Part shown: positions 10,801-38,616 of the stretch, one piece after another
How the letters are laid out: each line of letters opens with the position of its first letter
Position numbering within the stretch: the first letter of the stretch is position 1
Virus record (IMG/VR): IMGVR_UViG_3300018432_000017
Location: 1 to 52,149 of that record
Source of the DNA: a virus
Taxonomy: Duplodnaviria > Caudoviricetes
Strand: one strand, 5' to 3'
DNA length: 52,149 nt
Made by a program: the position numbers and the translations under genes
The notes under the pieces: model-generated
The model's database searches: none
The model's input: only the letters and a program-made list of their open reading frames with translations
What the model was told of the DNA's origin: nothing

Positions 10801-10918
10801 CGAAGATGAGGCCAATACGTCCGGCCGCTACCCCGACATAGGCAACGGTTGTCGAGGAGGTTCCCCGCGCAGCCGTTCCTACATCGACCCCGGTTGATGC
10901 GGAATGCGTGATGGCCAC
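7838..10918 (-). CDS. large fibre-like virion protein with ~22-aa repeats and a LamG/concanavalin-like domain
   Basis: 1026 aa Ser/Gly/Thr/Ala-rich; two tracts of ADSxRSxGPxxGxxxVxS repeats flank a central aromatic beta-sandwich (TNTWMIIGVSK..LRLGRW). Confidence 0.65.
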   Translation of the reverse strand: MAITHSASTGVDVGTAARGTSSTTVAYVGVAAGRIGLIFAVTKPETATWSTVSGWTNIADFTGGTGSSGVDTGPTRMGVWYRLLDGSETGNVTVATTGGGSTSAIMSVYAQSAGGWDTPVVVTGTDTTHGSSPVAASVGTWPSSVETGDWIAFGYAADTDVTTSFTAATLAMTGYTFGARTQRSRRLNSDGNDTGVSSWDAEVTAGSGGTTAPSLTLSQAATSCGEFTFVRLRESSGGTDVADDIRDGRVEINSIPVTSVVNSASDVRAAISAWRGISATSAAARADSFRSAGPLPGTSGVSSVVSSGADVRSGAPLLGTTSATSSASRTASVAPVGPLPGAGSVTSVVNSGADLRSIGPIVSPARATSAASTTADARSTVVPRPGTGRAAEVANTGSNARGLGPAVASAPVDSDLNIVGPIARGFNNDSYIDLNPGGASAVDGGPISLAFMVYFYDLANGAIIHALNATNDNCYWLEVYGSTIDFGTTSTPDVCPFTPVTNTWMIIGVSKANGNAIPRWHRLLWDGTPTWEHQNGTQLVNDVRSPTSSGKLRLGRWGTGTGEQLNGRIQLGLVEDSVLSDGDFETLSTAFSAWGALDPTVLIELGQDDVATPVTDLSSTGTADQIGILNTTPEEGNPFFSMTATGVDDDAYSVGPLLGTTRVDSGAGRADGSTGVGPSIGSGSVTSSPGRADSIRSTGPFPGAGSVTAVPGTGSLARSAGPLLGSTGANSASSRADSERGSVPTIGAGSVSSIPNQDSQARSASPLLGAGRVDSALAFSVSDSVRSSGPIVGTSGVTSAPGRSDSVRGAVLSVSSVAVVGTVHLGSLARSVGPLLGSTSVSSALTFDLADSVRSAGPLPGSTSAGSTLGIGSTPRGSAPSIGSARIGSAASLASTPRGGLVLSGGRVDSVLALATDSRGGRLLLGSTSLNSLVVVATSIADNVRGSGLALPSTRINATTESALFTETRSWTTLWPGGVGYLFTPGEAPTVDVAPPLAIDVSIPGALLVELDDAGALNVDITPVTL

Positions 10919-20679: not shown

Positions 20680-21293
20680 TCCGGTTGCCCCTCTGGGAGT
20701 CCGTAGAAGGCCGTGCCCGTCTGCTGCTTCTCGGAGACCTCCGCGACCTCGGTCGGCCAGCCGGCTAGCTCCTGAATGCCGATAGTCGGGCCGTGAGCGC
20801 ACCGGAAGGACATCGAATGCTGGTTCTGCACCTTGCAGATCTCGCCGCAGTCGGAGAACTCCTCTGGGTCGTACGCCGCGTCAGCGTCGGAAACGTGCCC
20901 CGTTTCGCCGGAGAGGGTGCGGACGGTATTCCCGGCAGTCCGGGACAGGCTAAGCCCTTCCGCAGCCGTAGCGGGCTTCTCGGGCAGTCCTTCCCGCAGC
21001 AGCTGATCGAAGATCCGCAGCAGATGGATCCGGCGGTTGCGCGGTAGCTCACCCCAGACGACCGGAGCGGCGAGGTTCGACCGGGCGCCGTGCTGAACGG
21101 CGAACTCCTCATAGAGGTCGTGAAAGCGCTGGGCCCACTTCTCCGCCGGATCGATGGTCCTCCCGGAAACCCTTGCCTCGGGCTCGGTCGGAACGAGGGA
21201 GGCGAGATGGATTGCTGCTTCCGCAACCGCCGTCGCTCCCCAGGCGACCCCCAGAGTCCGTAGCGCGGTCTCCAAGCGCGGGTCATTCCGCAT
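20676..21293 (-). CDS. hypothetical protein
   Basis: start ATG 21293 after GAGGAGG; WAQRFHDLYEE..A...W.ELP segment. Confidence 0.6.
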   Translation of the reverse strand: MRNDPRLETALRTLGVAWGATAVAEAAIHLASLVPTEPEARVSGRTIDPAEKWAQRFHDLYEEFAVQHGARSNLAAPVVWGELPRNRRIHLLRIFDQLLREGLPEKPATAAEGLSLSRTAGNTVRTLSGETGHVSDADAAYDPEEFSDCGEICKVQNQHSMSFRCAHGPTIGIQELAGWPTEVAEVSEKQQTGTAFYGLPEGQPE

Positions 21294-21705
21294 TCTTGGC
21301 CTCCTCATCGGTCTCGTCCCGCACGACCCAGGTGTGCTCGTCAAAGGTCTCCCCGGCCACCAGAGGATTCTCGCCGGTGTCGGTGTTGCCCATCCGGCCG
21401 TAGAAGTGAGAGAGCTGAGCAGCGAGCATCTGGTTGTCCATCTTGACGGCCTGAAGCTCCGCCTGCTGCTCGCCGTACCGGATCGACAGATCCTCCAGCT
21501 GCGCTCGGACCGAAGCGCGGGCAAGCCCCAGCTCCTCCCGAATCTTGTTCATGAGGGCTTCACCGATGGCCTTGGCGCGGGTGCTCTCGAAGACTCCCGC
21601 CCCGGAAAGGTTCTCCCAACACGTCGAAGCGGCGCCCAGGGACGTGAACACGGCCTCCTCAAGACTCTCCTCGGGAGGCAGCTGAAAAACATTGGGGTTA
21701 GTCAT
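21283..21705 (-). CDS. hypothetical protein
   Basis: LGAASTCWENLSGAGVFES motif plus coiled coil. Confidence 0.65.
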   Translation of the reverse strand: MTNPNVFQLPPEESLEEAVFTSLGAASTCWENLSGAGVFESTRAKAIGEALMNKIREELGLARASVRAQLEDLSIRYGEQQAELQAVKMDNQMLAAQLSHFYGRMGNTDTGENPLVAGETFDEHTWVVRDETDEEAKNAE

Positions 21706-21953
21706 ACGTCGGATCCTTCCGTCTCGGCTTCGTTGCCGCTAGCAGACCGCTCTCGGAGGATTGCGGCCGATACGTGGTTGGCTATCGCTGCCCGAGCGAC
21801 CCGCTCCCAGCGCTCCTGCATTTCGTCGTTGAGGTCAGACCACTGCGGGGCGAAGGCGGTAGCGAGCCCTCCGGTATTCACCCACATTGAGTACGCGGCC
21901 TGCCCCGGCGTCAATCCGCCGGTTGACCGTCCGGACTCTTGAACATCTCCCAT
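21702..21953 (-). CDS. hypothetical protein
   Basis: TPGQAAY..W.DL....Q..WE..A.A pattern. Confidence 0.6.
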   Translation of the reverse strand: MGDVQESGRSTGGLTPGQAAYSMWVNTGGLATAFAPQWSDLNDEMQERWERVARAAIANHVSAAILRERSASGNEAETEGSDV

Positions 21954-22138
21954 AGGAATTGCCTCGCCATATCCTCGTGTGTCCGCTTGTCATTCTCCGA
22001 CTCCGGCGCGATGACGCCTTGCTCATCGAGCCATTCCCCGTACATGATTAGCAATGCCTCGGTAGTCAAGAGTGCCACCCGTCCCTCAGTATCGAGCGCG
22101 ATGCTCGCATAGTCCGGGATGACGTTACGGGACTCCAT
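21911..22138 (-). CDS. hypothetical protein
   Basis: 75 aa, coupled start. Confidence 0.55.
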   Translation of the reverse strand: MESRNVIPDYASIALDTEGRVALLTTEALLIMYGEWLDEQGVIAPESENDKRTHEDMARQFLWEMFKSPDGQPAD

Positions 22139-28302: not shown

Positions 28303-28477
28303 GCTCGACAATCGCTCGATTCCACAAGATGCAGAAGACTAGCGCGGTAACCGCCGAGCCCAACGCCGCGATAGCAGCGAGCCACGAGGGCCATAGAGCG
28401 AATAGGATCTGTGATGCGCCGGTGAGGCCCAGGAATAGCAGCACCCACCGCATCCAGAACCGCGCGCGCGAGCTCAT
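28271..28477 (-). CDS. small membrane protein
   Basis: two TM helices. Confidence 0.6.
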   Translation of the reverse strand: MSSRARFWMRWVLLFLGLTGASQILFALWPSWLAAIAALGSAVTALVFCILWNRAIVEHEEDQEDYGA

Positions 28478-29553
28478 TGCTTGCCGATCCTGTTACGGGG
28501 CGAGGGGAGGAAGACCCGGTTGCTCTGCTTAGCCCACGGGAACGCGCACTGCTCCTCGACGTTCTCCCAGCCCTGGAACGTGCACTTCCGCTCCTTCGAG
28601 CCGAGCCCTCCGCACACCGTACAGTCGACTAGGGCGATGTCCGGCTCAACCGGAGTCGGGTCCTCCGGGCTGTACGCCACGCCGTCGTAATAGAGCTTCC
28701 CGGAGCCGGCGCAACTCCAACACAGGGCGCCCTTCTCGCAGCTGATCTTGACGTACGGCTCCAGGAAGGGGTGCGCCGCAAGCAAAGCGGACCGCATCGC
28801 GCGGGCAGCGGCCACCATCTCCCACTGGAACATCGAGCAGCCCCGGTAGGCGAACATGGCGATGAACTCGCGGATCGAGTACTCGCACAGAATGTAGTTG
28901 GTGGTGCCCTCCGGCAAGATATAGCGAGCGTCCTGATAGGAGATCCCCGCATCGCACGCCGCCTTGTATGCGGCCCATGACGCCTTCAGGGCCTCCTTCC
29001 AGAGGTGCATAACCCGGTGCTCCCATAGGTCCGGGTCGTCCTCCGTCGCGAGGATCGACATAGGCCAGCGCTGGTTCGGCCGGTCTCCGTACCACGTAGC
29101 CCGCTGGGACTGCTGGTGGAAAGCCGCGCGCCGGGACCGGACTAGCTGGTGCGTGAGGACGCGAGAGGCGCCTATGACCTCGAACACAATCACCTGCGAT
29201 TCCAGTGCCGTCTGGAGCCCTCCCTTGAACATCTCCTCCGGGTCGGTCGCCTCCTCGGGCTCGTTCGGGTTGACGCCGTTGGTAGCGCGAATCGCCCGGC
29301 GGAGAGTCTTCGAGAGCTGCGCCTCATCGACCCCCTGGACCAGGCTCACCTCCAGGTTGTCCGCTCCGAAGTCGACGCGGCCCGTGTCGTACGGAGAGAC
29401 GTGCCCGCCCCCGTTGCGATCGTGGTTGTTGAAAGCCTTGTCGGCAAACAGAAGCTGCTCGCTGACCATGCTGCGCGAGAAGATCACCGACTCCGGCATG
29501 TCCCGGTACGGCGCTGCTCCCCGGTGCGCATGGAGCCAATTCATGTTGGCCAT
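28474..29553 (-). CDS. thyX: ThyX-like flavin-dependent thymidylate synthase (divergent, with Zn-finger insert)
   Basis: SRVLTHQLVRSR..F.QQSQR, QDARYILPEG, QWE motifs; CxxCxGxG pair near the C-terminus. Confidence 0.82.
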   Translation of the reverse strand: MANMNWLHAHRGAAPYRDMPESVIFSRSMVSEQLLFADKAFNNHDRNGGGHVSPYDTGRVDFGADNLEVSLVQGVDEAQLSKTLRRAIRATNGVNPNEPEEATDPEEMFKGGLQTALESQVIVFEVIGASRVLTHQLVRSRRAAFHQQSQRATWYGDRPNQRWPMSILATEDDPDLWEHRVMHLWKEALKASWAAYKAACDAGISYQDARYILPEGTTNYILCEYSIREFIAMFAYRGCSMFQWEMVAAARAMRSALLAAHPFLEPYVKISCEKGALCWSCAGSGKLYYDGVAYSPEDPTPVEPDIALVDCTVCGGLGSKERKCTFQGWENVEEQCAFPWAKQSNRVFLPSPRNRIGKQ

Positions 29554-29729
29554 CCCTCAATACCTTCCAGTTGGTTTGCTACTATGAGACCGATGGCACT
29601 TACTGTCCAGGCAAACTCGCCTAGCTCATCCCCATCATCCGACTGAACCCCGCACATCGTAAGCGCTACGGCCCAGGACCCCGCAGAGGCGACGACGCAT
29701 CTAGCCCACACCGCCGCGAGCCCTCTCAC
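29541..29729 (-). CDS. small membrane protein
   Basis: two hydrophobic segments, GTGA-coupled. Confidence 0.45.
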   Translation of the reverse strand: MRGLAAVWARCVVASAGSWAVALTMCGVQSDDGDELGEFAWTVSAIGLIVANQLEGIEGWPT

Positions 29730-29896
29730 TTCGAGGCCGGCTCAGTCTTAGGGGCGGGAACGGGAGCCGGGACTACGGGGTTGACTAGCGAGCACTTGCA
29801 GATATGTTGGGCAAGGGCAACGGCGCCCCACTGGGTGTTGGCCGTAACAAACTCCTTGCAGCCCGAGCACTTCAGGAATGCGACCCTCTCAATCAT
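29726..29896 (-). CDS. small Cys/His protein (56 aa)
   Basis: hand-translated MIERVAFLKCSGC...HICKC; GAGGAGGG RBS. Confidence 0.55.
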   Translation of the reverse strand: MIERVAFLKCSGCKEFVTANTQWGAVALAQHICKCSLVNPVVPAPVPAPKTEPASK

Positions 29897-30197
29897 GAGT
29901 CAGGCCCTCCTCGTTGACAAAAGGGCAGTCGCCCAGACCGAGCAACCGGGGGCAGTGCGTGCTTACGTGGCGTAGCAACCGGTCCAGCGACTCGCGCTGC
30001 CGGGCAACCCTCTGGTCGGCGTCCGTCTGGAACTTCGCGCCGATGATCCGGCCGACAACCATAAACTTCTCGCCCGCCCCGCGCTGGGCTCGCTCGACGT
30101 TAAGAGCCCATCCGGTCGTCTTGTTGTCCTTCGTGCCGATGATCTCCAGAATCTCGTTCGGTTCCGGCACGTACAGGGCTTCCCGATTGACGGACAT
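29889..30197 (-). CDS. hypothetical protein
   Basis: start ATG 30197 after GAGGAG. Confidence 0.6.
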   Translation of the reverse strand: MSVNREALYVPEPNEILEIIGTKDNKTTGWALNVERAQRGAGEKFMVVGRIIGAKFQTDADQRVARQRESLDRLLRHVSTHCPRLLGLGDCPFVNEEGLTHD

Positions 30198-30327
30198 CCG
30201 GGACTCCTCTCTCACTCGCTGCGATCTGATTTACGCGCTCTCGGGCCGCTATGACCCATCCCTCTACCACGATATCTCCTTCCCGCCGCAAGCCTAGTTT
30301 ACGATCGGGAACTGCCGCTACAGGCAT
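30100..30327 (-). CDS. possible small protein
   Basis: ATG just after the dnaE stop; long overlap with the next gene lowers confidence. Confidence 0.3.
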   Translation of the reverse strand: MPVAAVPDRKLGLRREGDIVVEGWVIAARERVNQIAASERGVPDVRQSGSPVRAGTERDSGDHRHEGQQDDRMGS

Positions 30328-30332
30328 ATTTC

Positions 30333-33300
30333 CTACTCCGGGTTGATAACAAACATTTGCTGGACGTACAGGCTCGCACCGAAGCCGCCCTTGCTCTTCC
30401 TGGCCTCGACGTACAGCACGTCCGTCCCGAGCCGCAGCCTCTCGATAGCGGCCTTGAACTTCGGGTAGTTGAACCGGGTGACCCGCACGTACACATCTTC
30501 ATCCCCGTCGTCCTTGCAGTGGATGACGCAGGAGGTGGGGAGGTCCGGCCGGTCAATCGACGCGCGGATCTCCTCGACGCTCTTGCCGGACCGAGCCCGC
30601 TCATCCTCGAAGATGTCCTTGTACTCCTTCCGCCCCGGCACGCCCATCCAGCGGAGCGAGGTTCCGCCCTCGGCTTCAAGGATCCCGTCAGAGTTCATAT
30701 CCGGCATAGGCAACGGGATCTCGCCGCTACGGATCGACTTCCGGACCTCCGCGAGCGCGTTGGCAATCTTGTCGACCCCAAACGGGTCCTCCGCCTCCGC
30801 GAAGGTCCGAAAGCTCTGGATCGTCTTGGAGCCGATGCCCCGGACCTCCAACAGATCCTCGAAGCCCTTAATCGGCTTCTCCCGTGCGTGCGCCACGATC
30901 CTGTCCGCAGTTACCGCTCCGACCCCCGGCACCTGTAGCCAACCGGCTAGCACACTTCCCTCGGGTGTTACCGACCAGTCCGCCTCCGACCGCGCTGGAT
31001 CGAGCGGGATGACCGAGATCCCGTGCCGACCCGCGTCCTTCAGCAGAGCGTGCAGTGTCGCCTCCGAGTTGGCCCCTCCGCTCGCGTTCCGGAGCGCAGC
31101 GGCGTAGAACGGGGCGGGGTGATAGACCTTGAACCACATGCACCAGAAGGCGATCATTGAGTACGACACGCAGTGCGCAACGTTGAAGGCATAGGTAGCG
31201 GCGGTCACGAGCCGGCCCCAGATCTTGTGGGCGGTGTCCCGGTCGATCCCGTGGAGTCGAGCCGCCCCCGCAGCGAAGCTATCCGCGCTCTCGTTGAACT
31301 TAGCCTCACCGAGCTTCTTGGAGATGATCTTCCGGATCTCGTGGACCTCTTCGACCGGGAGCCCTCCGATGATCTCCAGGATCTTAAGGATCTGCTCCTG
31401 GTAGATGATCTCGCCGTTGGTCGCCTTCGTTAGCTCATCAATGATCGGATGGAAATGCTTCTTCTCCGCCCGGCCAAACTTGACGTTGATGTAGTCGCCG
31501 GTGGTGCCCGAGAAGAGGGGTCCGGGGCGGGACATCGCATTCACCGCCGCCAGCTCCATGAAGTCGTTCGGCTTGACGTCCCGGTTCACGAGCCGCGTTG
31601 CGCGACCCTCCCACTGGAAGACGCCGATGACGTCGTTGCGGCGGAAGGCTTCCATCACCTTCTCGTCGTCCATCTTGATCCGGTAGAGGTCTTCCAGGGT
31701 AAGGCCGGCGAGGTCCAGTGCCGCCCCGAGCATCTCCATAGTCGAGAGCCCGAGGAAGTCCACCTTCAGCAACCCAAGGTACTCCGCGTCATACTTGTCA
31801 ACGGCGACAACGGTTACCGGGTGCCCGCGCACCTCCTTCGCATACGAGGCAGTGATCTCATCCAGGTGCGCATTCGTCACCACGAGGCCGGCGGCGTGGA
31901 CATTGAGGCCCCGGTAGTCACCTTCGAGGTCCGCAGCCTTCCAGAGGGCGGGATACCGCTCGAACACGTCCTTCACTACGGGGAACATCTCGACGGTATC
32001 GGCTAGCGTGAAGTCAGCGCGGGAGTCTCCGCCCGAGCGCTCGATGAGCATGCCCTTGACGGTCTCCGCCTCAAACTTTGGGACCTCGTGGACCCGCGCT
32101 ACGTCATCAATCGAGTTCCGCCCCCGGTACCGGACGTAGTTGGCGAGGTTGCCGACCGAGCCGGCGCCGTACCGCCCTTCGAGGAAGGTCCGAATCTCAT
32201 GCCGGCGGTTGGACGCGAAGTCGAGATCGATATCAGGGATATCCGTACGGGTCGGATCGATGAACCGCTCGAAGTACATGAGCGGGTATTCCATAGGATC
32301 GATCTCGGTGATGCGCAACAGATAGCACACGAGCGAGGCCGCAGCCGAACCTCGGGCGGGACCCACCAGCACGCCCGCCTCCTTCGCGAAGCGGGTTGCG
32401 TCCGCCGTCATGACGAAGTAGTCGATGAAGTCCTTTGCCTTGATATCACCCATCTCCCGGTCGATCCGGTCCTTGTACTCCGCTGCGTGCTTGACCATTC
32501 GCTGGTTGCCCTGCCGGACCCGGTAGCTCCACCCCTCCCGCATCCACGCCCAGATCAGCTCCTCCGAGGTCGCCCCAGGCATTACCTGCTCGACTGGGAA
32601 CCGCAGCAGCTCCGCCTTCGGGAGGATCACGTTACACCGGTCGGCAATCTCTACCGTCGAGCGAGCCGCCTCCCGCGCTCCGGCTAGGGAAAGTCCGGTG
32701 GCGCGTAGTCGATCGATAACCAGGCGGTCAGAGGTCGGGTGAGTGAGCCGGATGTCATACTCCCACCCCTCCATCTGTCGGGCGACGGTATTATTGCCCC
32801 GGTGCGCCGCATGTAGGATGACCTGAATTTCGTTGTCATTGGGTTGAGGATAATGAACATCTGCCGTCGCGGCAAGCGGAATCCCCAGGCGCGCTCCCAT
32901 ATCTTCAAAGGCCGGGTTGAGCGTCCGGGTGCGCTCCAACTCGGGGAACATCTGCGTTTCGAGATAGAAGCGGTCACCGAAGATGCTCTTGAACTGCGAG
33001 GCCACGCGCTCGGCGCGACGGAGAGAGGCTTCCTCCTCTGGGATCGTCTTACCGCCCAGCAGCGAGCATGACAGCATTGAGTCGGCACACCCAGAGAGAA
33101 CCACCAACCCTTCGCTGTGATCCCGAAGCATTGCCCCGTCAACCGTTGGCCAGTAATAGAACTTCTCCGCCCAGCTACGGCTGACAATCCGGTTGAGGTT
33201 CGCATACCCCTCCTGGTTCTCCGCGAGGATGGTGAGGTGGAACTTCCTCTGGGTTTTCGGCTCCGGCTGAAAGTAGGCTTCAAGCCCGAAGAGAGGTTTG

Positions 33301-33476
33301 ATGCCGACCTTCCGGCAAGCCTTCTCGTGTTGAGGGTGCGACGAGACATTCCCGTGCTCCGTAACCGCTTGCGCCGTCATGCCAAGCTCGGCACTCCTCA
33401 GCGCGTGCTTGTAAGGAGTGCCGTGCCCGTCTCCGAATGAAAACGTGGTGTGGTGATGTATCGATACGTACTTGAT
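30333..33476 (-). CDS. dnaE: DNA polymerase III alpha subunit (DnaE), probable ATC start
   Basis: PHP motif HHHTTFSFGDG lies upstream of the listed ATG; GPARGSAAAS, PDIDLDF, KVDFLGL, YQEQI, YAFN motifs. Confidence 0.93.
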   Translation of the reverse strand: MKYVSIHHHTTFSFGDGHGTPYKHALRSAELGMTAQAVTEHGNVSSHPQHEKACRKVGIKPLFGLEAYFQPEPKTQRKFHLTILAENQEGYANLNRIVSRSWAEKFYYWPTVDGAMLRDHSEGLVVLSGCADSMLSCSLLGGKTIPEEEASLRRAERVASQFKSIFGDRFYLETQMFPELERTRTLNPAFEDMGARLGIPLAATADVHYPQPNDNEIQVILHAAHRGNNTVARQMEGWEYDIRLTHPTSDRLVIDRLRATGLSLAGAREAARSTVEIADRCNVILPKAELLRFPVEQVMPGATSEELIWAWMREGWSYRVRQGNQRMVKHAAEYKDRIDREMGDIKAKDFIDYFVMTADATRFAKEAGVLVGPARGSAAASLVCYLLRITEIDPMEYPLMYFERFIDPTRTDIPDIDLDFASNRRHEIRTFLEGRYGAGSVGNLANYVRYRGRNSIDDVARVHEVPKFEAETVKGMLIERSGGDSRADFTLADTVEMFPVVKDVFERYPALWKAADLEGDYRGLNVHAAGLVVTNAHLDEITASYAKEVRGHPVTVVAVDKYDAEYLGLLKVDFLGLSTMEMLGAALDLAGLTLEDLYRIKMDDEKVMEAFRRNDVIGVFQWEGRATRLVNRDVKPNDFMELAAVNAMSRPGPLFSGTTGDYINVKFGRAEKKHFHPIIDELTKATNGEIIYQEQILKILEIIGGLPVEEVHEIRKIISKKLGEAKFNESADSFAAGAARLHGIDRDTAHKIWGRLVTAATYAFNVAHCVSYSMIAFWCMWFKVYHPAPFYAAALRNASGGANSEATLHALLKDAGRHGISVIPLDPARSEADWSVTPEGSVLAGWLQVPGVGAVTADRIVAHAREKPIKGFEDLLEVRGIGSKTIQSFRTFAEAEDPFGVDKIANALAEVRKSIRSGEIPLPMPDMNSDGILEAEGGTSLRWMGVPGRKEYKDIFEDERARSGKSVEEIRASIDRPDLPTSCVIHCKDDGDEDVYVRVTRFNYPKFKAAIERLRLGTDVLYVEARKSKGGFGASLYVQQMFVINPE

Positions 33477-33509
33477 GGTTATCGCCTCCGGTCGGGAAGC
33501 CTACTGCCT

Positions 33510-33707
33510 TCAGAACTCGAAGTGTCGCCTAAAGATGATCCAGTGGCAGCCCTTGTCGGTATTGATCCAAATGCCATTGATCTTCCAGGGGCGAGTTTGT
33601 CCCTTCAGAACCGCGCGACCCTTCCTCTCAGCAAAGCTGAAGCCGATCCCCTTACGGAGCATGAAGTACGGCTTGCCATTCGGCATGACCTCGTGCGTGA
33701 TCTTCAC
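33510..33707 (-). CDS. small basic protein
   Basis: 65 aa, coupled GTG start. Confidence 0.55.
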   Translation of the reverse strand: MKITHEVMPNGKPYFMLRKGIGFSFAERKGRAVLKGQTRPWKINGIWINTDKGCHWIIFRRHFEF

Positions 33708-33904
33708 TCAATCCAGCCTCTCCGGAGCGCGAGCGCTACCGCAGCCGTCCGGCTCTGCAGGTGGTGCTTCATCATGAACTTCCGGAGGTGCGTCTTGACC
33801 GTGTCGGCAACAACGAACATCTTCCGGGCCGTTTGCTCGGTGGACAGTCCGTCCGCTAAATGCTGCAGGACCATCTTTTGCTGCTCGGTAATCTCAGGGT
33901 TCAC
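33704..33904 (-). CDS. LuxR/NarL-type HTH regulator
   Basis: LADGLS..Q.A..MFV..DTVKTHL....K.....R..AVA.A.R.G. Confidence 0.85.
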   Translation of the reverse strand: MNPEITEQQKMVLQHLADGLSTEQTARKMFVVADTVKTHLRKFMMKHHLQSRTAAVALALRRGWIE

Positions 33905-34368
33905 CTAACTCCCTCCGCAGTGTCTAGGGTGATGTCGCCGCAGTTCTCCTCGGTGACCTCCGGCAGCGCCGAGACCGAGCCGGGGTTGACGTCCTTAAGC
34001 TCCATCTCCACGGGAGCGGACTTCCGCGATATCTCCTGCAGTCCAGTGCTATCGGTCGGGACCACGGTAACCTCGACAACGGTTGTAAGCTCCTGGATGA
34101 CGGAGCCGTTGTCGCCGGCCTTCCAGACGGAGAAGGCGCATGTCTGCTTGTTGTTGCCGAAGGGCCAGAGCCAGAAGGCGGCGTGCACCTTGATGACGCC
34201 GACAGCCGCAAAGCCGTTGTCCTGCAACACCTTCCGGGGATCAAAGGGCGTGCTGTCGCTACCGGAGTCGGATCCGGAGTCAGACCCGAAGTTGCCGGAG
34301 TCCGGGTCGGTGCCGCAGCCCGTCAGAACGAGGGTGAGCACGAGAGCGGTGGTGAGCTTGCGGATCAT
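33901..34368 (-). CDS. lipoprotein
   Basis: signal peptide with lipobox LTGC. Confidence 0.75.
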   Translation of the reverse strand: MIRKLTTALVLTLVLTGCGTDPDSGNFGSDSGSDSGSDSTPFDPRKVLQDNGFAAVGVIKVHAAFWLWPFGNNKQTCAFSVWKAGDNGSVIQELTTVVEVTVVPTDSTGLQEISRKSAPVEMELKDVNPGSVSALPEVTEENCGDITLDTAEGVR

Positions 34369-34664
34369 TCGAATCTCCTCAGATATTCTGCAACGGCTAG
34401 TTCGGTCTTGATCATGTTGGAGCAGCGCGCTACCTCGGAGATCCAGAATCCCCGTAGCGCCACGAGGTCGGAGAGCCGGAAGTCATGCTCAACGTCCTTC
34501 CGGAGCTTCATCGGGTCCGGCTCCCGCGCTACGTGCGTCGCATGGATCCGGTTCCACTCAGCGTCCGCCTTCTCCGCCCGTTCGTTGGCGTAGCGCATCC
34601 GGCTCCGAAGCTTCTGGATTATGCCCGGTGTGATCTTTCCGGGCCGTTCATCCTCGGGTTTCAC
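34365..34664 (-). CDS. hypothetical protein
   Basis: GTG 34664 after GGAGGG; helical. Confidence 0.6.
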   Translation of the reverse strand: MKPEDERPGKITPGIIQKLRSRMRYANERAEKADAEWNRIHATHVAREPDPMKLRKDVEHDFRLSDLVALRGFWISEVARCSNMIKTELAVAEYLRRFE

Positions 34665-35350
34665 AGCAATCCCTCCTGTTGCAGCTCCTCGATCCGCTTG
34701 CCCATCTCTTCCCAGTGCCGCTCCATAGCCGGCTGGAAACTCGGGTTGCGGAGCCCGTAGGCCGGGTGGTACTGGTGGCATATGAAGGTCTTGCCCCGCA
34801 ACGGGTATACGTCACCCCGGTTAGGGAGCGTTCCCCAGCCGCCTAGCGTCCTGCCGGCGACCGAGCCCACGGCGATGATCAGCCTAGGCTTCCCGCACAA
34901 CCTCCATTCCTCTCGCAGCCACCGCGCGGCCCATAGCTCATCCGCTGACGTCGGAGTCCTATGCGGACGCGGCAGGTACTTGATCGTGTTGGTCAGGAAC
35001 ACATTCGGTAGGTGCTGAATCTCCGCCTCTCCCGCCTCCACGTCCGGGGGTACGGAGACCTCCCGCCGAGCGTACAGACCGGCGAGCGCCATCAGTTGAG
35101 ACAGGACATGACCGGACGGACCGATGAACGGCTCCCGCTTCAGCTCCTCCTGCGCGCCCGGAGCCTCCCCTACGACCATCGCGAGCGGGTCGGTAGAGTT
35201 GCCGATCCCCGGAACCAGCTTCGCTCCTAGCTCCCGGTACCGCGCCCACTCTCCGCACACGTCCATCTGGTCGTAGAAGTCGTCCAGATCCTCAGCTTTC
35301 ACCGGAGTGTCGAAGCGCGGTCGGGTGTCGTCCGCTCCCCGGAAGGCCAT
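34661..35350 (-). CDS. uracil-DNA glycosylase, family 4-like
   Basis: VGEAPG..E.....PFIGPSG, FLTN, YHPAY.LRNP; start ATG 35350. Confidence 0.88.
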   Translation of the reverse strand: MAFRGADDTRPRFDTPVKAEDLDDFYDQMDVCGEWARYRELGAKLVPGIGNSTDPLAMVVGEAPGAQEELKREPFIGPSGHVLSQLMALAGLYARREVSVPPDVEAGEAEIQHLPNVFLTNTIKYLPRPHRTPTSADELWAARWLREEWRLCGKPRLIIAVGSVAGRTLGGWGTLPNRGDVYPLRGKTFICHQYHPAYGLRNPSFQPAMERHWEEMGKRIEELQQEGLL

Positions 35351-35351
35351 C

Positions 35352-35816
35352 TCAAAACCCTCCCTCTGTTCCGTCGTCCATCGGTAGGCGGATCGGCTCG
35401 TGGATCGAGGCGCCCTTAGGCTGAGCGCACATCGGACCGGCGCCATCGCCCAGGATCCCGGTGCACAGCGCTCCATACCCGACAAACGGGTGCCTCTTCC
35501 CGACGATCTTCCGGCTTCCCACGGGAGTTCCCGAGAGATCCGGTCCATACTCAGCGTCCCAGTCGACTATCGCGAGGAGAGCATGGCCGACGATCTCTAG
35601 CAGTATTGTCCGGGGATCCTCGCGCATCGCGACATTCGTACCGTCCCACAGGATCGGCTTGAGCTTCGAGACCTTCTTGTGAAGGCCGTGGAACTCCGCC
35701 CGGATACCTAGCTCGCGCACCTCCGGATACTCCGCGTTCCAGGCGAGGAAGCGGCTCTTGAACTCCGGTAGCAGGTTGTCGAAGATGTAGGTAAGCTCTT
35801 CATCCCGCTTGCCCAT
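35352..35816 (-). CDS. nucleotide-modification-associated (Nmad1/DUF1599, MazG-like all-helical) protein
   Basis: F...NAEY....LG..AEF..L.KK..KLK...W......E.....L.EIVGHALL pattern. Confidence 0.6.
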   Translation of the reverse strand: MGKRDEELTYIFDNLLPEFKSRFLAWNAEYPEVRELGIRAEFHGLHKKVSKLKPILWDGTNVAMREDPRTILLEIVGHALLAIVDWDAEYGPDLSGTPVGSRKIVGKRHPFVGYGALCTGILGDGAGPMCAQPKGASIHEPIRLPMDDGTEGGF

Positions 35817-36447
35817 TTTCAAACCTCCAGGTCAGGATCGACTCCGCCGCAAACAGCCACATATGGCTTGCGTCCTTGACTCTCATGAATCCGGTCGTAT
35901 GTTGATTGTAGGGCTGATCCCGAATTGCGACTAGCGGGAAGTACTTGTTAGCTTCTAGACACATCTCGGGAAGGTCATCGATCACCCCGGCGACCCGCGA
36001 GCCGGCCTGCCGGTGCAGCTCCTTGTACTTGTCATCCCCGAACAGCAACCCATCCGGCTCGATTCCCGCCCGGCGCAGACACTCCCGCGTGTCCGGGTCG
36101 ATGTTGTCTAGCCGGAGGTAGGGGCGGGTGGTACACAACCACAGCTCCGCCCCTACCGTCTTCACGTTGTCGGCAAACCGTTTGATACCCGGATACATCG
36201 GCATCCACCGCTTGTTCCCGCCCTGCCGGAAGGCTAGCTTGCACTCGCGGTACGCCTCCTGCGTAACCCCCATGAACTTCCACAGAGGCTGACCGGGGTT
36301 GATCTGGTCGGCCGGCGGCATCTCCTTCCCCATGAACTTCCGCGCGAAGTCGAGAAAGTGCGAGTGGTAGTCGCCCAGGGTGCCGTCGATATCGCATGCA
36401 ATGATGGGGATCCCCTCCCCGTTGGTCTTAACCACGGGGATTCGCAA
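35800..36447 (-). CDS. HAD-family 5'(3')-nucleotidase/phosphatase
   Basis: DIDGTL motif I, TTR motif II, K, IDD motif IV, QPYNQ. Confidence 0.85.
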   Translation of the reverse strand: MRIPVVKTNGEGIPIIACDIDGTLGDYHSHFLDFARKFMGKEMPPADQINPGQPLWKFMGVTQEAYRECKLAFRQGGNKRWMPMYPGIKRFADNVKTVGAELWLCTTRPYLRLDNIDPDTRECLRRAGIEPDGLLFGDDKYKELHRQAGSRVAGVIDDLPEMCLEANKYFPLVAIRDQPYNQHTTGFMRVKDASHMWLFAAESILTWRFENGQAG

Positions 36448-37252
36448 TCAGCTCCGCCTTGTTGTAGGCGTGGTGCGATAGCTCGCCTTTCTCCCACGAG
36501 CCGTACCGCCCGGCAAAGGCGATCCACGGCATATCCCCGTAGCAGTCGCAGCTGTGGCCGGTCGGCTTGAAGACCTCCGCGACTCCGGGGATGGGAGGCT
36601 TGCTCTGGAATGGCCACTCAACGGTAGCATGCTCGAATACCCGCGACGCTCGATACCACGAGGGGTACTCCTCCCCATTGCAGATTACTCCCGCCTGCCC
36701 GACCTCGGGCGGGACCGGCGCCCACTGGTCGCGGTCGGAAGCATCTCCGATCGCCCAGACAGCCTGCGAGTGGAAGGTGTGCCGCTCCAGGCTTTTGCAG
36801 ACGATCGAGCGCGGGATAGTGCTGATGACAACGTCAAACTCATCTGCGATGCTATCGATGTCCCCCGACTTCACCTCCATGTTGTAGACCAGATTCTGAT
36901 ACCGGTTCCATGCATCGTCATATGCCTTCCGGATATCAAAGGCCTGGTGGTATCCCTGGAGAACAGAGGGGGAGACCTCCAGCCGCTCTCCGCCCCCGTA
37001 GACCTTCTCGCGGTACTGGTCGACCGTTCCCCGCAGCGAGTACTTGACGACGGTGCCGTGTGCGGCGAGACCGGGGATAGGGGCGTGGAGATACTGGGCG
37101 CCGTACATGTGGCTCTTGCGCTTCTTCGAGATGACCTCGACTACCTTGACCCCGTTGCTCGCTAAGGCGTGCGCGGCGAACATTCCGGCAGGACCACAGC
37201 CGAGTACGGCGGCACTCCTAGGAGGCTTCGCGGACCCGAAAGACAGCTTCAC
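36428..37252 (-). CDS. FAD-dependent oxidoreductase (UDP-galactopyranose mutase/Glf-like fold)
   Basis: GCGPAG Rossmann motif, GAQYLH, VISTIP, FAGRYGSW; GTG 37252. Confidence 0.75.
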   Translation of the reverse strand: MKLSFGSAKPPRSAAVLGCGPAGMFAAHALASNGVKVVEVISKKRKSHMYGAQYLHAPIPGLAAHGTVVKYSLRGTVDQYREKVYGGGERLEVSPSVLQGYHQAFDIRKAYDDAWNRYQNLVYNMEVKSGDIDSIADEFDVVISTIPRSIVCKSLERHTFHSQAVWAIGDASDRDQWAPVPPEVGQAGVICNGEEYPSWYRASRVFEHATVEWPFQSKPPIPGVAEVFKPTGHSCDCYGDMPWIAFAGRYGSWEKGELSHHAYNKAELIANPRG

Positions 37253-38040: not shown

Positions 38041-38616
38041 CTAGAAGGGTGGCTCCTCATCGTAATCGGAGCCGGCGGTGTCCGTCACTTCTTCATCCTC
38101 ATCTTCATCCGGCTCGGGCTCCGGCTCGACGGGGGCAGCGTTCGGAGGCGGCCAGTATCCGCCGATCTCCAGTCGCGGAGCACCGTTGTAGGACCCCATC
38201 ACGAGGGAAGCCTGGACGTACTGCTTGCCGGTGTGCTTCCACTTGCCGATCGAGACGATGTTGCCCTTGTCGGTGCCGTCGTCCTTGGTGCGGTCGATAA
38301 AGTCGGATCCCTTGACCCCGATGGCGTCCAGGAACGGAGCGAGCCGGAAAGCGCTGCTCTCGCCTACCGGGATGAAGTCGGTGATGAAGTATCCCTTGTA
38401 CTTCTGGTCATCCGGCCGCGTCTTCCGGGGAATCAGCTCCAGCCCGACCATCAGCTGCGGGTTGTTGTTGCTGCTCATCCTCCGCCGGAGAATGTTGATC
38501 TTCCAGGCATACATGCCGGGCACGGGCATCGGCCCGTCGTACGGCTTGAAGTTGCCCCTCTCGGCGTTGTCGATTGCATCGGCGGAGACGTTCCCGCCCC
38601 ATGTGACCTTAGCCAC
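38041..38616 (-). CDS. single-stranded DNA-binding protein (DUF669-like)
   Basis: P.PG.Y OB-like core, acidic tail ending DEEPPF; adjacent to the ATPase. Confidence 0.7.
   Translation of the reverse strand: MAKVTWGGNVSADAIDNAERGNFKPYDGPMPVPGMYAWKINILRRRMSSNNNPQLMVGLELIPRKTRPDDQKYKGYFITDFIPVGESSAFRLAPFLDAIGVKGSDFIDRTKDDGTDKGNIVSIGKWKHTGKQYVQASLVMGSYNGAPRLEIGGYWPPPNAAPVEPEPEPDEDEDEEVTDTAGSDYDEEPPF

Follow-up and report, generated by a model that had tools for sequence, protein, structure and literature searches.

Phages that replace a base through the nucleotide pool include the SPO1/SP8-type phages with hmU, T4 with hmC and the PBS-type phages with U. In the known systems the hydroxymethylases belong to the ThyA family, and a dNMP kinase is encoded along with a dUTPase/dTTPase or dCTPase. 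Their replication genes cluster with genes for a thymidylate-synthase relative, a dNMP phosphatase, an NTP-PPase-like or Nmad-type protein and a phage-encoded polymerase. Such systems are not known to use flavin chemistry. The thymidine hypermodification clusters of M6, ViI and PaMx11 act on 5-hmdU in DNA and, according to the available sections of PMC8989533, need a 5-hmdU DNA kinase, an aGPT-Pplase and a ThyA-type dUMP hydroxymethylase. One FAD oxidoreductase, PaMx11 gp47 (MnmC1-like), acts in such a proven pathway according to the same sections. A UDG coupled to the polymerase occurs in T-modified phages, as the accessible part of PMC13697223 describes. PolB and SVIThyX2, two paralogues of ThyX, act in polyoxin biosynthesis as UMP-methylating enzymes (PMC5003785, accessible part).

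A flavoprotein block beside the phage DnaE gene

The window, by which we mean the entire 52,149-nucleotide stretch analysed here, comes from a viral record that is about 79% complete. The original prediction saw in it a pathway that makes and incorporates a non-canonical pyrimidine nucleotide, and all the genes that it named could be located on the minus strand, at the positions below.

36428..37252, minus: OxR, 274-aa FAD Rossmann protein, phage-only (phrog_8720 4.9e-77; AF2; Foldseek)
35800..36447, minus: HAD phosphatase, NT5C-like (5'-deoxynucleotidase type; relatives' Pfam matches, motif I)
35352..35822, minus: possible DUF1599/Nmad1-like helical protein (alignment of relatives; Atlas)
34661..35350, minus: family-4-like uracil-DNA glycosylase, UDG (PF03167 1.6e-21)
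33510..34664, minus: four small coupled genes outside the conserved module (junction sequences; seldom seen in related loci), the next four lines
34365-34664, minus: protein of about 99 aa, no assignment
33901-34368, minus: lipoprotein-like, 155 aa (weak LPAM_1 match)
33704-33904, minus: LuxR-type HTH, 66 aa (GerE PF00196 8.7e-12)
33510-33707, minus: protein of 65 aa, no assignment
30333..33380, minus: DnaE-type DNA polymerase III alpha (PF07733 7.8e-57, PF17657, PF02811)
29889..30215, minus: 108-aa ORF between DnaE and ThyX-like, kept in closest relatives only
28474..29553, minus: ThyX-like flavoprotein, 359 aa (PF02511 5.1e-26, 92 bits; phrog_35637 4.8e-116)

The OxR, HAD, Nmad1-like and UDG genes form an overlapping chain, followed by the four small unrelated genes, DnaE and the ThyX-like gene. 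The junction sequences bear out the predicted translational coupling of the block. OxR starts with GTG in a GTGA overlap with the gene upstream of it; HAD starts at TTG 36447 or GTG 36435 and overlaps the OxR stop (by 8-20 nt); the HAD and Nmad1-like genes overlap by 17-23 nt; a 1-nt spacer precedes UDG; and the junctions from there down to 33510 are GTGA, ATGA, GTGA and GTGA. The block was placed just upstream of DnaE and ThyX just downstream of it. Both orders hold, but the small genes keep UDG from abutting DnaE, and small ORFs fill about 0.8 kb between DnaE and the ThyX-like gene. The 108-aa ORF here has tblastn matches in five related loci (L004, L021, L034, L039 and L068) and no match in Pfam and PHROG scans. 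The PHP motif of DnaE runs in frame upstream of its first canonical start, to about 33440, through a stretch without ATG, GTG or TTG.

The HAD translation contains a visible DxDGT motif I. The window protein itself has no Pfam match; 23 of 33 aligned relatives match NT5C (PF06941, best 4e-12), and the relative PLot gp62 matches it at 1.2e-7. The sole "kinase" label in the window, phrog_415, falls on this HAD protein. The name Nmad1/DUF1599-like can be kept in part. The gene is present, with a probable ATG start at 35816, preceded by GGAGG, and a conserved core at about residues 8-94, 2 of 30 relatives match DUF1599 (best E 0.0018) and 21 of 30 Atlas feature matches are DUF1599-type clusters (score 0.92), but the window protein has no Pfam match of its own. 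The UDG scores 82.3 bits (3.3e-23) against TIGR00758, below the cutoff of 125.3, and matches the T. thermophilus family-4 UDG (1ui0) at 5.7e-15. As in the SP15-like PolA-UDG fusions described in the available text of PMC13697223, a UDG is tied to a replicative polymerase, but here it is a separate gene, the polymerase is of the DnaE type and only 18 of 50 related loci have the UDG.

The ThyX-like protein and its OxR partner

The ThyX-like protein shares its fold, its profile match and the equivalents of E58, R78, R80, S88, R90, R147 and R174 with the canonical ThyX of T. maritima, M. tuberculosis, C. glutamicum and PBCV-1. Its family profile matches PDB ThyX at 1.9e-20, and its AF2 model (pLDDT 85.8) gives a Foldseek TMt of 0.72-0.74 to T. 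maritima ThyX. The listed residues are invariant in 37/37 aligned family members and kept in 129-145 of the best 150 representatives; by these alignments, the predicted dUMP- and FAD-binding residues are conserved in the subfamily. Elsewhere the family departs from canonical ThyX. His53 is replaced in 37/37 members, and 133 of the 137 representatives aligned have Leu, Ile or Val there; His79 is lost, RHR becomes R(S/T/Q/N)R, Tyr91 becomes Ala or Phe, His178 becomes Met or Gln, and three conserved Cys are gained. In the window protein, Leu stands in place of His53, Ala in place of Tyr91 and RSR in place of RHR. Extensions of about 100 aa (N-terminal) and about 90 aa (C-terminal, Cys-rich, with two CxxCxGxG repeats in the window protein) are further differences, and the score against the TIGR02170 equivalog, 77.8 bits, is under the cutoff of 87.9.

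The predicted rewiring of ThyX is thus upheld: His53 and Tyr91, which stack on folate/NADPH, are replaced and the dUMP/FAD-binding residues are kept (PMC11940539 and PMC8316439, available portions). The accessible text of PMC11940539 calls H53 "the conserved histidine" and describes it as stacking on the folate pteridine and FADH-. In T. maritima ThyX the Y91A change lowers the rate by more than 100-fold according to the corresponding part of PMC8316439, and the equivalent Y99A change almost abolishes PolB activity in that of PMC5003785. PolB and SVIThyX2 resemble the window protein as cases of a ThyX fold recruited outside plain dTMP supply, and they show that substrate scope can shift within the family. 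PolB, as far as the available part of PMC5003785 describes it, keeps NADPH/CH2H4folate chemistry and Tyr99, whereas the window protein has Ala there. The ThyX-like profile matches 4p5a at 9.5e-12, more weakly than it matches canonical ThyX. No OxR partner is described for PolB or SVIThyX2 in the accessible text, whereas the ThyX-like protein always has one.

The OxR model (AF2, pLDDT 94.6) has a two-domain fold of the amine-oxidase/UGM/DAAO type. Its nearest PDB folds by Foldseek are UDP-galactopyranose mutases, D-amino-acid oxidases and PHBH-type monooxygenases (TMq 0.43-0.58, about 10% identity). The Pfam scan returned weak Rossmann matches only and no GLF or Amino_oxidase domain. The label Glf-like in the original prediction is consequently true at the fold level only, because the similar folds are about 10% identical and the GLF domain match is missing. 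OxR shares the two-domain FAD fold with Glf, D-amino-acid oxidase and amine oxidase (TMq 0.50-0.58, Atlas TM 0.71-0.75), but it is 100-200 residues shorter and phage-confined. The model suggests one dinucleotide-binding domain, of oxidase/mutase type, and no obvious NAD(P)H:flavin reductase. None of the 580 homologues at E<=1e-5 carries a functional name, and representative genomes of 185,579 species hold 3 loci only, all on MAG contigs.

Distribution of the module in phages

The original prediction proposed a co-occurrence analysis, and the result is strongly positive: the genes are a real, conserved and non-random module. All 50 IMG/VR records with enough sequence have a ThyX-like gene in the same record as OxR, within the flank in 45 and elsewhere in 5. 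HAD comes next after OxR in 70 of 74 IMG/VR loci, and DnaE lies downstream in 58/58 loci with at least 6 kb of downstream sequence. An Nmad1-like gene occurs in 38 of 50 loci, and relatives contain an additional SDR (32/50) and SAM methyltransferase (5/50). In 4 of 51 loci the ThyX-like gene precedes DnaE and lies 36-2647 nt after OxR, so its proximity to OxR survives rearrangement. The gene order is OxR, HAD, SDR, ThyX-like in L035 and L042. OxR directly adjoins the ThyX-like gene without HAD in L081 and in Microbacterium phages Potty and Gilda, which argues for a direct functional tie.

OxR occurs in 126 GenBank phage records (Gordonia 46, Microbacterium 36, Mycobacterium 32, Streptomyces 9, Arthrobacter 2, Nocardia 1). 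PLot-type ThyX-like genes occur in 113 (Gordonia 46, Microbacterium 36, Mycobacterium 28, Arthrobacter 2, Nocardia 1) and window-type genes in 13 (Streptomyces 9, Mycobacterium 4); combined (113 + 13), their genus counts are identical to those of OxR. GenBank contains 261 records with the Cas4-like gene that belongs to this replication module, so about 135 relatives are without OxR. An HMM search of two such relatives (about 29 kb) gave no OxR, HAD, Nmad1-like or ThyX-like match. The same DnaE-type module is also present in relatives without OxR or ThyX-like genes, and the idea of a dedicated polymerase is not sustained. In cluster R phage Send513 a divergent member of the ThyA family occupies the syntenic position behind DnaE instead.

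The same pairing turns up in Proteobacteria phages at about 20-25% protein identity. PB1-like Pseudomonas phages and Wifcevirus phages of E. coli combine a distant OxR homologue with a ThyX-like gene, and the counts of the two genes agree in each genus (Pseudomonas 292/292, Escherichia 27/27, Serratia 9/9, Xanthomonas 6/6). The match between this Wifcevirus/PB1-type and the window OxR (hhalign probability 94.8%, E 5.4e-8) covers 129 columns of the N-terminal half only. In WFC and DL52 the pair lies beside a HAD-like gene and DnaE, and WFC also has an SDR. These Wifcevirus carriers of a homologous module are reported in the accessible part of PMC11990801 to be insensitive to the tested RM systems, with no mechanism of protection known for them.

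Possible roles of the block

We tentatively favour, at less than even confidence, a reading in which the ThyX-like/OxR pair makes dTMP by a two-flavoprotein route. The block would supply nucleotide precursors within a conserved phage replication module of the DnaE type, with the phage-specific ThyX-like protein and the small phage-only OxR as its invariant core. The ThyX-like protein would bind dUMP and FAD as ThyX does and may alkylate C5 to give dTMP. Because the folate/NADPH pocket is altered (His53, Tyr91, His79, three new Cys), flavin reduction and/or one-carbon delivery would be handed to OxR, plus the SDR in many relatives. The NT5C-like phosphatase would trim dNMP pools, the family-4-like UDG would keep the DNA that the neighbouring DnaE synthesises free of uracil, the DUF1599-like protein would be an accessory and virion DNA would be canonical. 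Several observations count against this dTMP route. The His53 and Tyr91 changes strike residues that are important for dTMP synthesis in canonical enzymes (available text of PMC11940539 and PMC8316439), the TIGR02170 cutoff is missed, the modelled OxR domain looks like an oxidase or mutase, and phosphatase, SDR, methyltransferase and Nmad1-like proteins exceed what dTMP synthesis needs. The Wifcevirus RM insensitivity (PMC11990801, accessible part) counts against canonical DNA.

A possible but rather doubtful alternative is that the pair, with the phosphatase (and SDR and methyltransferase in relatives), makes or processes a C5-modified dUMP other than dTMP. DnaE would incorporate the product, virion DNA would thereby carry a non-canonical thymine analogue as protection from restriction, the phosphatase would deplete canonical dNMP and the UDG would remove unmodified dU. 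The rewired pocket, the obligate pairing with an oxidase-like flavoprotein, the Send513 gene and the WFC gene set favour it, as do PaMx11 gp47 and the polymerase-coupled UDGs (PMC8989533 and PMC13697223, available sections). Accessory enzymes differ by lineage, as in the hypermodification clusters that PMC8989533 describes, but the 5-hmdU DNA kinase, aGPT-Pplase and ThyA-type dUMP hydroxymethylase of those clusters are missing here. The locus likewise resembles the pool-level systems in its thymidylate-synthase relative, dNMP phosphatase, possible Nmad-type protein and phage polymerase near replication genes, but no ThyA-family hydroxymethylase, dNMP kinase, dUTPase/dTTPase or dCTPase was found in the window. 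Pfam scans covering 41 distinct ORFs and PHROG scans of 18 (20 query entries) bear out the prediction's remark that no kinase or glycosyltransferase is visible. The 41 Pfam-scanned ORFs contain no dNMP kinase, dTTP/dUTP pyrophosphatase, 5-hmdU DNA kinase, aGPT-Pplase, glycosyltransferase or other DNA-level modifying enzyme, and this counts against base replacement; the annotated regions inspected in relatives likewise show none of these and no dUTPase-type dTTP excluder. The module is present in hundreds of sequenced isolates, and literature searches found no modified-base report for these phage groups, although such silence is only an absence of evidence. Wifcevirus is also very sensitive to EcoP1_I, something else may underlie its RM resistance, and its OxR homology is remote. 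The original interpretation is thus supported in part: the conserved module, the rewired ThyX, the SDR and methyltransferase in relatives and the RM-insensitive carriers speak for it, but the dedicated polymerase falls away and none of the findings shows a product other than dTMP.

It seems unlikely that OxR, HAD and SDR/methyltransferase form a separate small-molecule pathway (flavin/pterin cofactor processing, or a nucleoside or nucleotide-sugar made or destroyed for host takeover or counter-defence), linked by expression timing to an ordinary thymidylate synthase. The nearest folds of OxR act on small molecules, the rearranged loci with the ThyX-like gene before DnaE and the L035/L042 order are compatible with it, and PolB serves a nucleoside-antibiotic pathway (PMC5003785 and PMC5954106, accessible parts). 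However, OxR and ThyX-like genus counts agree in each of two phage groups that are very distant from each other, the two genes adjoin in HAD-less lineages, and the altered ThyX pocket is left unexplained. Co-descent of functionally unconnected neighbours in a conserved replication region is very unlikely. Carriers do share similar DnaE, Cas4-like and AAA_24 modules and gene order, and vertical descent therefore accounts for part of the co-occurrence counts. Against this stand the many Cas4-like records without OxR, genus counts that suggest loss or gain of ThyX-like genes with OxR, a pairing that survives local rearrangement and its recurrence in Proteobacteria phages. On the dTMP or the modified-dUMP reading, this widespread, unstudied gene set, carried here by a soil phage, may respectively provide a new route to the thymidine needed in replication or produce a modified DNA base.

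Layout of the DnaE region

The window takes in an entire IMG/VR virus record (52,149 nt). The record has an estimated completeness of 79%, its G+C content ranges from 59 to 67%, and nearly all of its genes are carried on the minus strand. In the direction of transcription, the region around the replicative polymerase gene is arranged as follows.

Gene order around DnaE, in transcription order
First, before OxR: SNF2-type helicase, PD-(D/E)XK Cas4-like nuclease and AAA_24 ATPase
After the AAA_24 ATPase, before OxR: 191-aa acidic-tailed protein and two small ORFs
36428-37252, minus: OxR, a small FAD protein
35800-36447, minus: HAD phosphatase
35352-35822, minus: DUF1599-like helical protein (Nmad1-like)
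34661-35350, minus: uracil-DNA glycosylase (UDG)
Between UDG and DnaE: four small genes (99 aa, lipoprotein-like, LuxR HTH, 65 aa)
30333-33380, minus: DnaE
Between DnaE and the ThyX-like gene: three or four small ORFs
28474-29553, minus: ThyX-like protein, a divergent ThyX relative
Further on, past the ThyX-like gene: primase-polymerase/D5-type helicase

Every junction from 37443 to 33510 either is a start/stop overlap (GTGA, ATGA, or 8-23 nt) or has a spacer of 1 nt, and by these junction sequences the original prediction correctly described a translationally coupled block. The block does precede DnaE, but it does not lie just upstream of it as had been stated, because four small genes and a 130-nt gap intervene. 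Two of these small genes, encoding a LuxR-type HTH protein (GerE 8.7e-12) and a lipoprotein-like product, form an insertion (33704-34368, minus strand) for which no counterpart was found at that place in most related loci.

Several other features of the region can be recorded. The metal-binding motif of the DnaE PHP domain precedes the first ATG (33380) in the same reading frame, at 33381-33440 on the minus strand, and no ATG, GTG or TTG occurs between this motif and the preceding stop. Probably DnaE starts at a non-canonical codon, or else there is a contig error in this interval. DnaE is a single ORF here and is in two pieces in Onyinye, Wollypog and Send513, where either an HNH endonuclease or a small ORF separates the two. 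The 191-aa protein (38041-38616, minus strand) ends in a long acidic tail whose last residue is aromatic, which gives it an SSB-like look; Pfam finds nothing in it, and its sole family match is phrog_9460 (3.3e-10), which is labelled 'methyltransferase'. Elsewhere, a 1026-aa ORF (7838-10918, minus strand) without any Pfam match lies directly upstream, in transcription, of a terminase-like gene (6309-7841) that weakly matches Terminase_6N. Megablast of the 8.8-kb region found no match in GenBank phages, and a search of sequencing runs matched one DNA dataset, the probable source soil metagenome, with no RNA dataset listed.

A remodelled ThyX and its neighbours

The ThyX-like protein matches Pfam Thy1 (PF02511) at 92.1 bits against a cutoff of 24.8, yet it scores under the cutoff of the NCBIfam equivalog TIGR02170 (77.8 versus 87.9 bits). 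Its AF2 model (pLDDT 85.8) aligns with T. maritima ThyX at a Foldseek TMt of 0.72-0.74, and the protein has a true ThyX fold. The canonical ThyX signature is RHR...S, and the canonical enzyme makes dTMP from dUMP, CH2THF and NADPH. Residues were mapped by profile alignment to the T. maritima enzyme together with a 37-member family alignment, in which the His53 column is anchored by the spacing G-x-(4)-E in the type of ThyX-like protein found here and x-x-P-[FL]-E in the second actinophage type, that of mycobacteriophage PLot.

T. maritima ThyX residues and their counterparts in the ThyX-like protein
E58: E118, kept
R78: R139, kept
R80: R141, kept
S88: S149, kept
R90: R151, kept
R147: R210, kept
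R174: R237, kept
H53: L113, changed; Leu in 37/37
H79 (central His of RHR): S140, changed; S/T/Q/N across the family
Y91: A152, changed; Phe in the PLot type
H178: M241, changed; Met or Gln

The Arg, Ser and Glu counterparts are invariant in the family. Because the binding residues are conserved and the H53/Y91 side is changed, the nucleotide and flavin sites are kept while the folate/NADPH side is remodelled. This agrees with the earlier proposal of a rewired ThyX, in that H53, H79, Y91 and H178 are replaced and the residues that bind dUMP and FAD are retained. Three cysteines (Cys239, Cys272 and Cys324) are conserved in the family. A profile search of 1.84 billion representatives recovered 533 clusters (50% identity) at E <= 1e-30, and residues were tallied in the best 150 of these after alignment to the family HMM. 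Among these 150, position 53 is L in 124, I in 8, V in 1 and H in 4 (L/I/V in 133/137); position 79, the central His of RHR, is Q in 67, T in 38, S in 15, N in 7 and H in 9 (Q/T/S/N in 127/140 aligned representatives); and position 91 is F in 97, A in 19 and Y in 7. Cysteine occupies positions 239, 272 and 324 in 138, 133 and 123 of the same best 150. Two DnaJ-type CxxCxGxG repeats occur in a C-terminal extension of the type found here (28474-28800); neither the PLot type nor several of the shorter members have them.

The altered positions have been studied in characterized enzymes. H53, the conserved histidine, makes stacking contacts with the folate pteridine and with FADH- and is paired with Y91 (PMC11940539). 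A Y91A substitution slows methylene transfer more than 100-fold, and free formaldehyde can be used by ThyX (PMC8316439). In PolB, where Y99 is the equivalent of Y91, Y99A almost abolishes activity and Y99F is tolerated for dUMP (PMC5003785).

OxR had been called Glf-like, a description that can refer at most to the fold and not to family membership. Its Pfam matches are limited to Rossmann fragments (E 0.002-0.007), with none to PF03275 (GLF), and neither Pfam nor NCBIfam is informative past the dinucleotide-binding motif. A structure predicted from a 41-sequence alignment (pLDDT 94.6) has UDP-galactopyranose mutases, D-amino-acid oxidases and PHBH-type monooxygenases as Foldseek neighbours (TMq 0.43-0.58, ~10% identity); the Atlas neighbours, of the amine-oxidase, protoporphyrinogen-oxidase and UGM class, agree. 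A single-sequence PDB search gave Rossmann-level matches only (E > 0.1). The protein belongs to phrog_8720, whose PHROG label is function unknown, and none of its 580 homologues at E <= 1e-5 has a functional name. Representative genomes of 185,579 species contain only three OxR loci, all on MAG contigs; the family is large and viral. A predicted complex of the ThyX-like protein with OxR scored 0.00, which is no verdict and speaks neither for nor against binding.

HAD phosphatases are recognized by motif I (DxDxT) plus conserved Thr, Lys and Asp motifs. In the alignment, D19, D21, G22, T106, K140 and D158 are invariant in 33/33 sequences, so that the HAD motifs of this phosphatase are intact. 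The protein itself does not match NT5C (PF06941), which is matched by 23/33 of its relatives (35-57% identity, best 4e-12), and a PDB profile search with the alignment found nothing at E <= 0.001.

The assignment of the helical protein to Nmad1/DUF1599 receives weak backing from its relatives and from the Atlas, and none from the protein itself, which has no Pfam match to PF07659 (DUF1599, Nucleotide modification associated domain 1). Two of 30 relatives match DUF1599 (E down to 0.0018), and 21/30 feature hits fall in the DUF1599 cluster set of the Atlas (score 0.92), where 26-66% of the members of the two clusters shown carry the domain. A PDB profile search yielded spurious spastin/XRCC4 matches only (E >= 0.019). 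Nmad domains were reportedly described by Iyer et al. In Streptomyces-phage-like loci the Nmad1-like domain forms the N-terminal third of 315-460-aa proteins (locus L001, 5958-6971; also loci L049, L057-L059, L065, L066, L069 and L071); the C-terminal parts of these fusions, of the Rooney gp53 type, are not matched by the UDG, SDR, HAD or OxR HMMs. The glycosylase matches PF03167 at 77.3 bits (cutoff 24.3) and the family-4 model TIGR00758 at 82.3, under its cutoff of 125.3. Its best solved relative is the T. thermophilus family-4 UDG 1ui0 (5.7e-15), with both conserved blocks aligned, which suggests a family-4-like enzyme.

Distribution of the pair

The order of oxidoreductase, phosphatase, further genes, DnaE and ThyX-like protein recurs in Streptomyces phage Rooney, mycobacteriophage PLot (cluster D), Onyinye and Arthrobacter phage Wollypog, and the PLot module has an extra SAM methyltransferase and SDR. 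In a table of a genome announcement, the oxidoreductase and phosphatase phams occupy cluster sets that overlap with those of the FabG-like reductase, methyltransferase and ThyX-like phams, namely AE, BN, D, DG, DV and EF (PMC11385102). Eighty IMG/VR loci around OxR relatives were searched with proteins of the window and of PLot; this set may overlap with GenBank, and the two are not fully independent.

Neighbours of OxR in IMG/VR loci
HAD beside OxR: 70/74
DnaE downstream of OxR: 58/58
ThyX-like within 10.5 kb: 45/50
Nmad1-like: 38/50
SDR: 32/50
UDG: 18/50
Methyltransferase: 5/50

The remaining five records encode the ThyX-like protein elsewhere, so that it accompanies OxR in 50/50. OxR was found in 126 of 50,697 GenBank phage records (Gordonia 46, Microbacterium 36, Mycobacterium 32, Streptomyces 9, Arthrobacter 2, Nocardia 1). 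The ThyX-like type found here (>= 80% query coverage) is present in 13 (Streptomyces 9, Mycobacterium 4) and the PLot type in Gordonia 46, Microbacterium 36, Mycobacterium 28, Arthrobacter 2 and Nocardia 1. In these genus-level tallies the two types sum to the OxR count in every genus, and this equality, with the 50/50 IMG/VR records, bears out the co-occurrence across actinophages that the original prediction had put up as a check. The phosphatase is less constant, with 83 GenBank records and only 4/36 in Microbacterium, and in those Microbacterium-type genomes the ThyX-like gene directly follows OxR (36 nt in locus L081). OxR and the ThyX-like protein are thus the invariant core.

The pairing is found again in phages of Proteobacteria. 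The ThyX proteins of PB1-like phage DL52 and of Wifcevirus (WFC) show the same peculiarities in alignment and match the ThyX-like family HMM at ~1e-44 each. This weakened the idea that the sole role of OxR is to make up for the loss of His53 in actinophages, because the PB1-like ThyX shares that loss. By eye, however, a 333-aa protein with an OxR-like N-terminus was spotted 1.2 kb upstream of DL52 thyX, and subsequent profile-profile comparison of its family (2,143 proteins at E <= 1e-5) with OxR gave an hhalign probability of 94.8% (E 5.4e-8, 129 columns). The PB1/Wifcevirus protein is thus a remote homologue of OxR, as shown for its N-terminal half only, and its presence restores the compensation idea in a broader form.

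Tblastn counts of this relative are Pseudomonas 292, Escherichia 27, Serratia 9, Xanthomonas 6, Pbunalikevirus 4 and Rhizobium 8. PB1-type ThyX has the same count in each of these groups except Rhizobium, where it has 10. The WFC order is OxR relative, hypothetical, ThyX-like, HAD-like, SDR, hypothetical, DnaQ and DnaE, with an NTP-PPase near the module. Its SDR matches the actinophage SDR HMM at 2.9e-45, and hmmsearch of DL52 and WFC with the actinophage OxR, HAD and Nmad1-like HMMs gave no match. The HAD-like genes of both phages, which do not match the HAD profile, are so called by motif I only.

OxR and the ThyX-like protein are shown to be a conserved, phage-exclusive flavoprotein pair embedded in DnaE replication modules. 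Their usual company is a dNMP-type phosphatase and, variably, an SDR, a methyltransferase, an Nmad1/NTP-PPase-like protein and a UDG.

Possible functions of the pair

The best single reading, which we infer tentatively, is a two-flavoprotein thymidylate synthase in a phage with canonical DNA. The remodelled ThyX-like pocket would no longer take electrons and/or the one-carbon unit directly, and OxR, with or without the SDR, would provide them. The phosphatase and UDG could then serve pool and uracil hygiene, and virion DNA would be canonical.

The main rival is the original proposal that the product is a non-canonical pyrimidine, which we consider rather unlikely. The accessory enzymes are a surplus that varies from lineage to lineage, and two papers supply precedents, an FAD oxidoreductase in thymidine hypermodification (PMC8989533) and a polymerase-coupled UDG in T-modified phages (PMC13697223). 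However, a dNMP kinase, a dTTP/dUTP pyrophosphatase and a DNA-level transferase were not found in the window or in the relatives inspected. Known phage base-replacement systems have a non-canonical base in virion DNA, a dedicated dNMP kinase and a canonical-dNTP pyrophosphatase; of the two enzymes, Pfam finds neither among 41 ORFs of this 79% complete record. Literature searches gave no modified-DNA report for these heavily sequenced groups, and the link to Wifcevirus runs through remote OxR homology. A doubtful but specific form of the proposal is that the pair and the NT5C-like phosphatase, elsewhere with the SDR and methyltransferase, make, by flavin chemistry, a thymidine analogue that replaces or supplements T in the DNA of this phage and of several hundred cultured phages; these other carriers would be mycobacteriophage cluster D and Gordonia, Microbacterium, Streptomyces, Pseudomonas PB1-like and E. 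coli Wifcevirus phages.

It is improbable that the module serves a separate small-molecule pathway, and still less probable that its genes are together through mere co-descent of neighbours. In GenBank the Cas4-like nuclease that belongs to this replication module occurs in 261 records compared with 126 for OxR, and therefore ~135 related phages are without OxR; Gordonia phage NovumRegina and Mycobacterium phage Send513 (cluster R) have neither OxR nor the ThyX-like protein.

The slot after DnaE, which the ThyX-like gene occupies in the window, holds in Send513 a divergent ThyA-family gene (21012-22016 of its locus; PF00303 7.2e-15). With the nearby genes for a nucleoside deoxyribosyltransferase, a MazG-like protein and three methyltransferases, it makes up a further candidate set for nucleotide modification.

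Hundreds of phage genomes already have the genes of the module under the labels 'oxidoreductase', 'phosphatase' and 'ThyX-like thymidylate synthase', so the window adds a member to a set that is annotated but uncharacterised. Literature searches, which mostly did not extend to subscription journals, found no paper on what this set does, and none on a modified base in these groups. Nor did they find one describing the strict pairing, its recurrence across phages of Actinobacteria, Pseudomonas and E. coli, or the loss of His53 and Tyr91 and gain of three cysteines that define the ThyX-like family. The pair, found in 126 + 362 GenBank phage records (RefSeq duplicates counted), would define a branch of flavin-dependent pyrimidine chemistry that is exclusive to phages and uncharacterised. 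Carriers include model mycobacteriophages and Pbunavirus phages used in therapy, and since many are in culture collections, either reading is cheap to test. If the product is dTMP, then the pair would represent a new two-component thymidylate synthesis without the canonical folate/NADPH pocket, with a bearing on how ThyX works and on its standing as a drug target. Only a product other than dTMP would be categorically new. A modified nucleotide would reveal a new class of DNA base-replacement pathway and would readily account for restriction-resistant phages with 'no known protection mechanism'. A thymidine analogue, if true, would supply the unknown 'genome protection mechanism' to which the reported restriction resistance of Wifcevirus is due.
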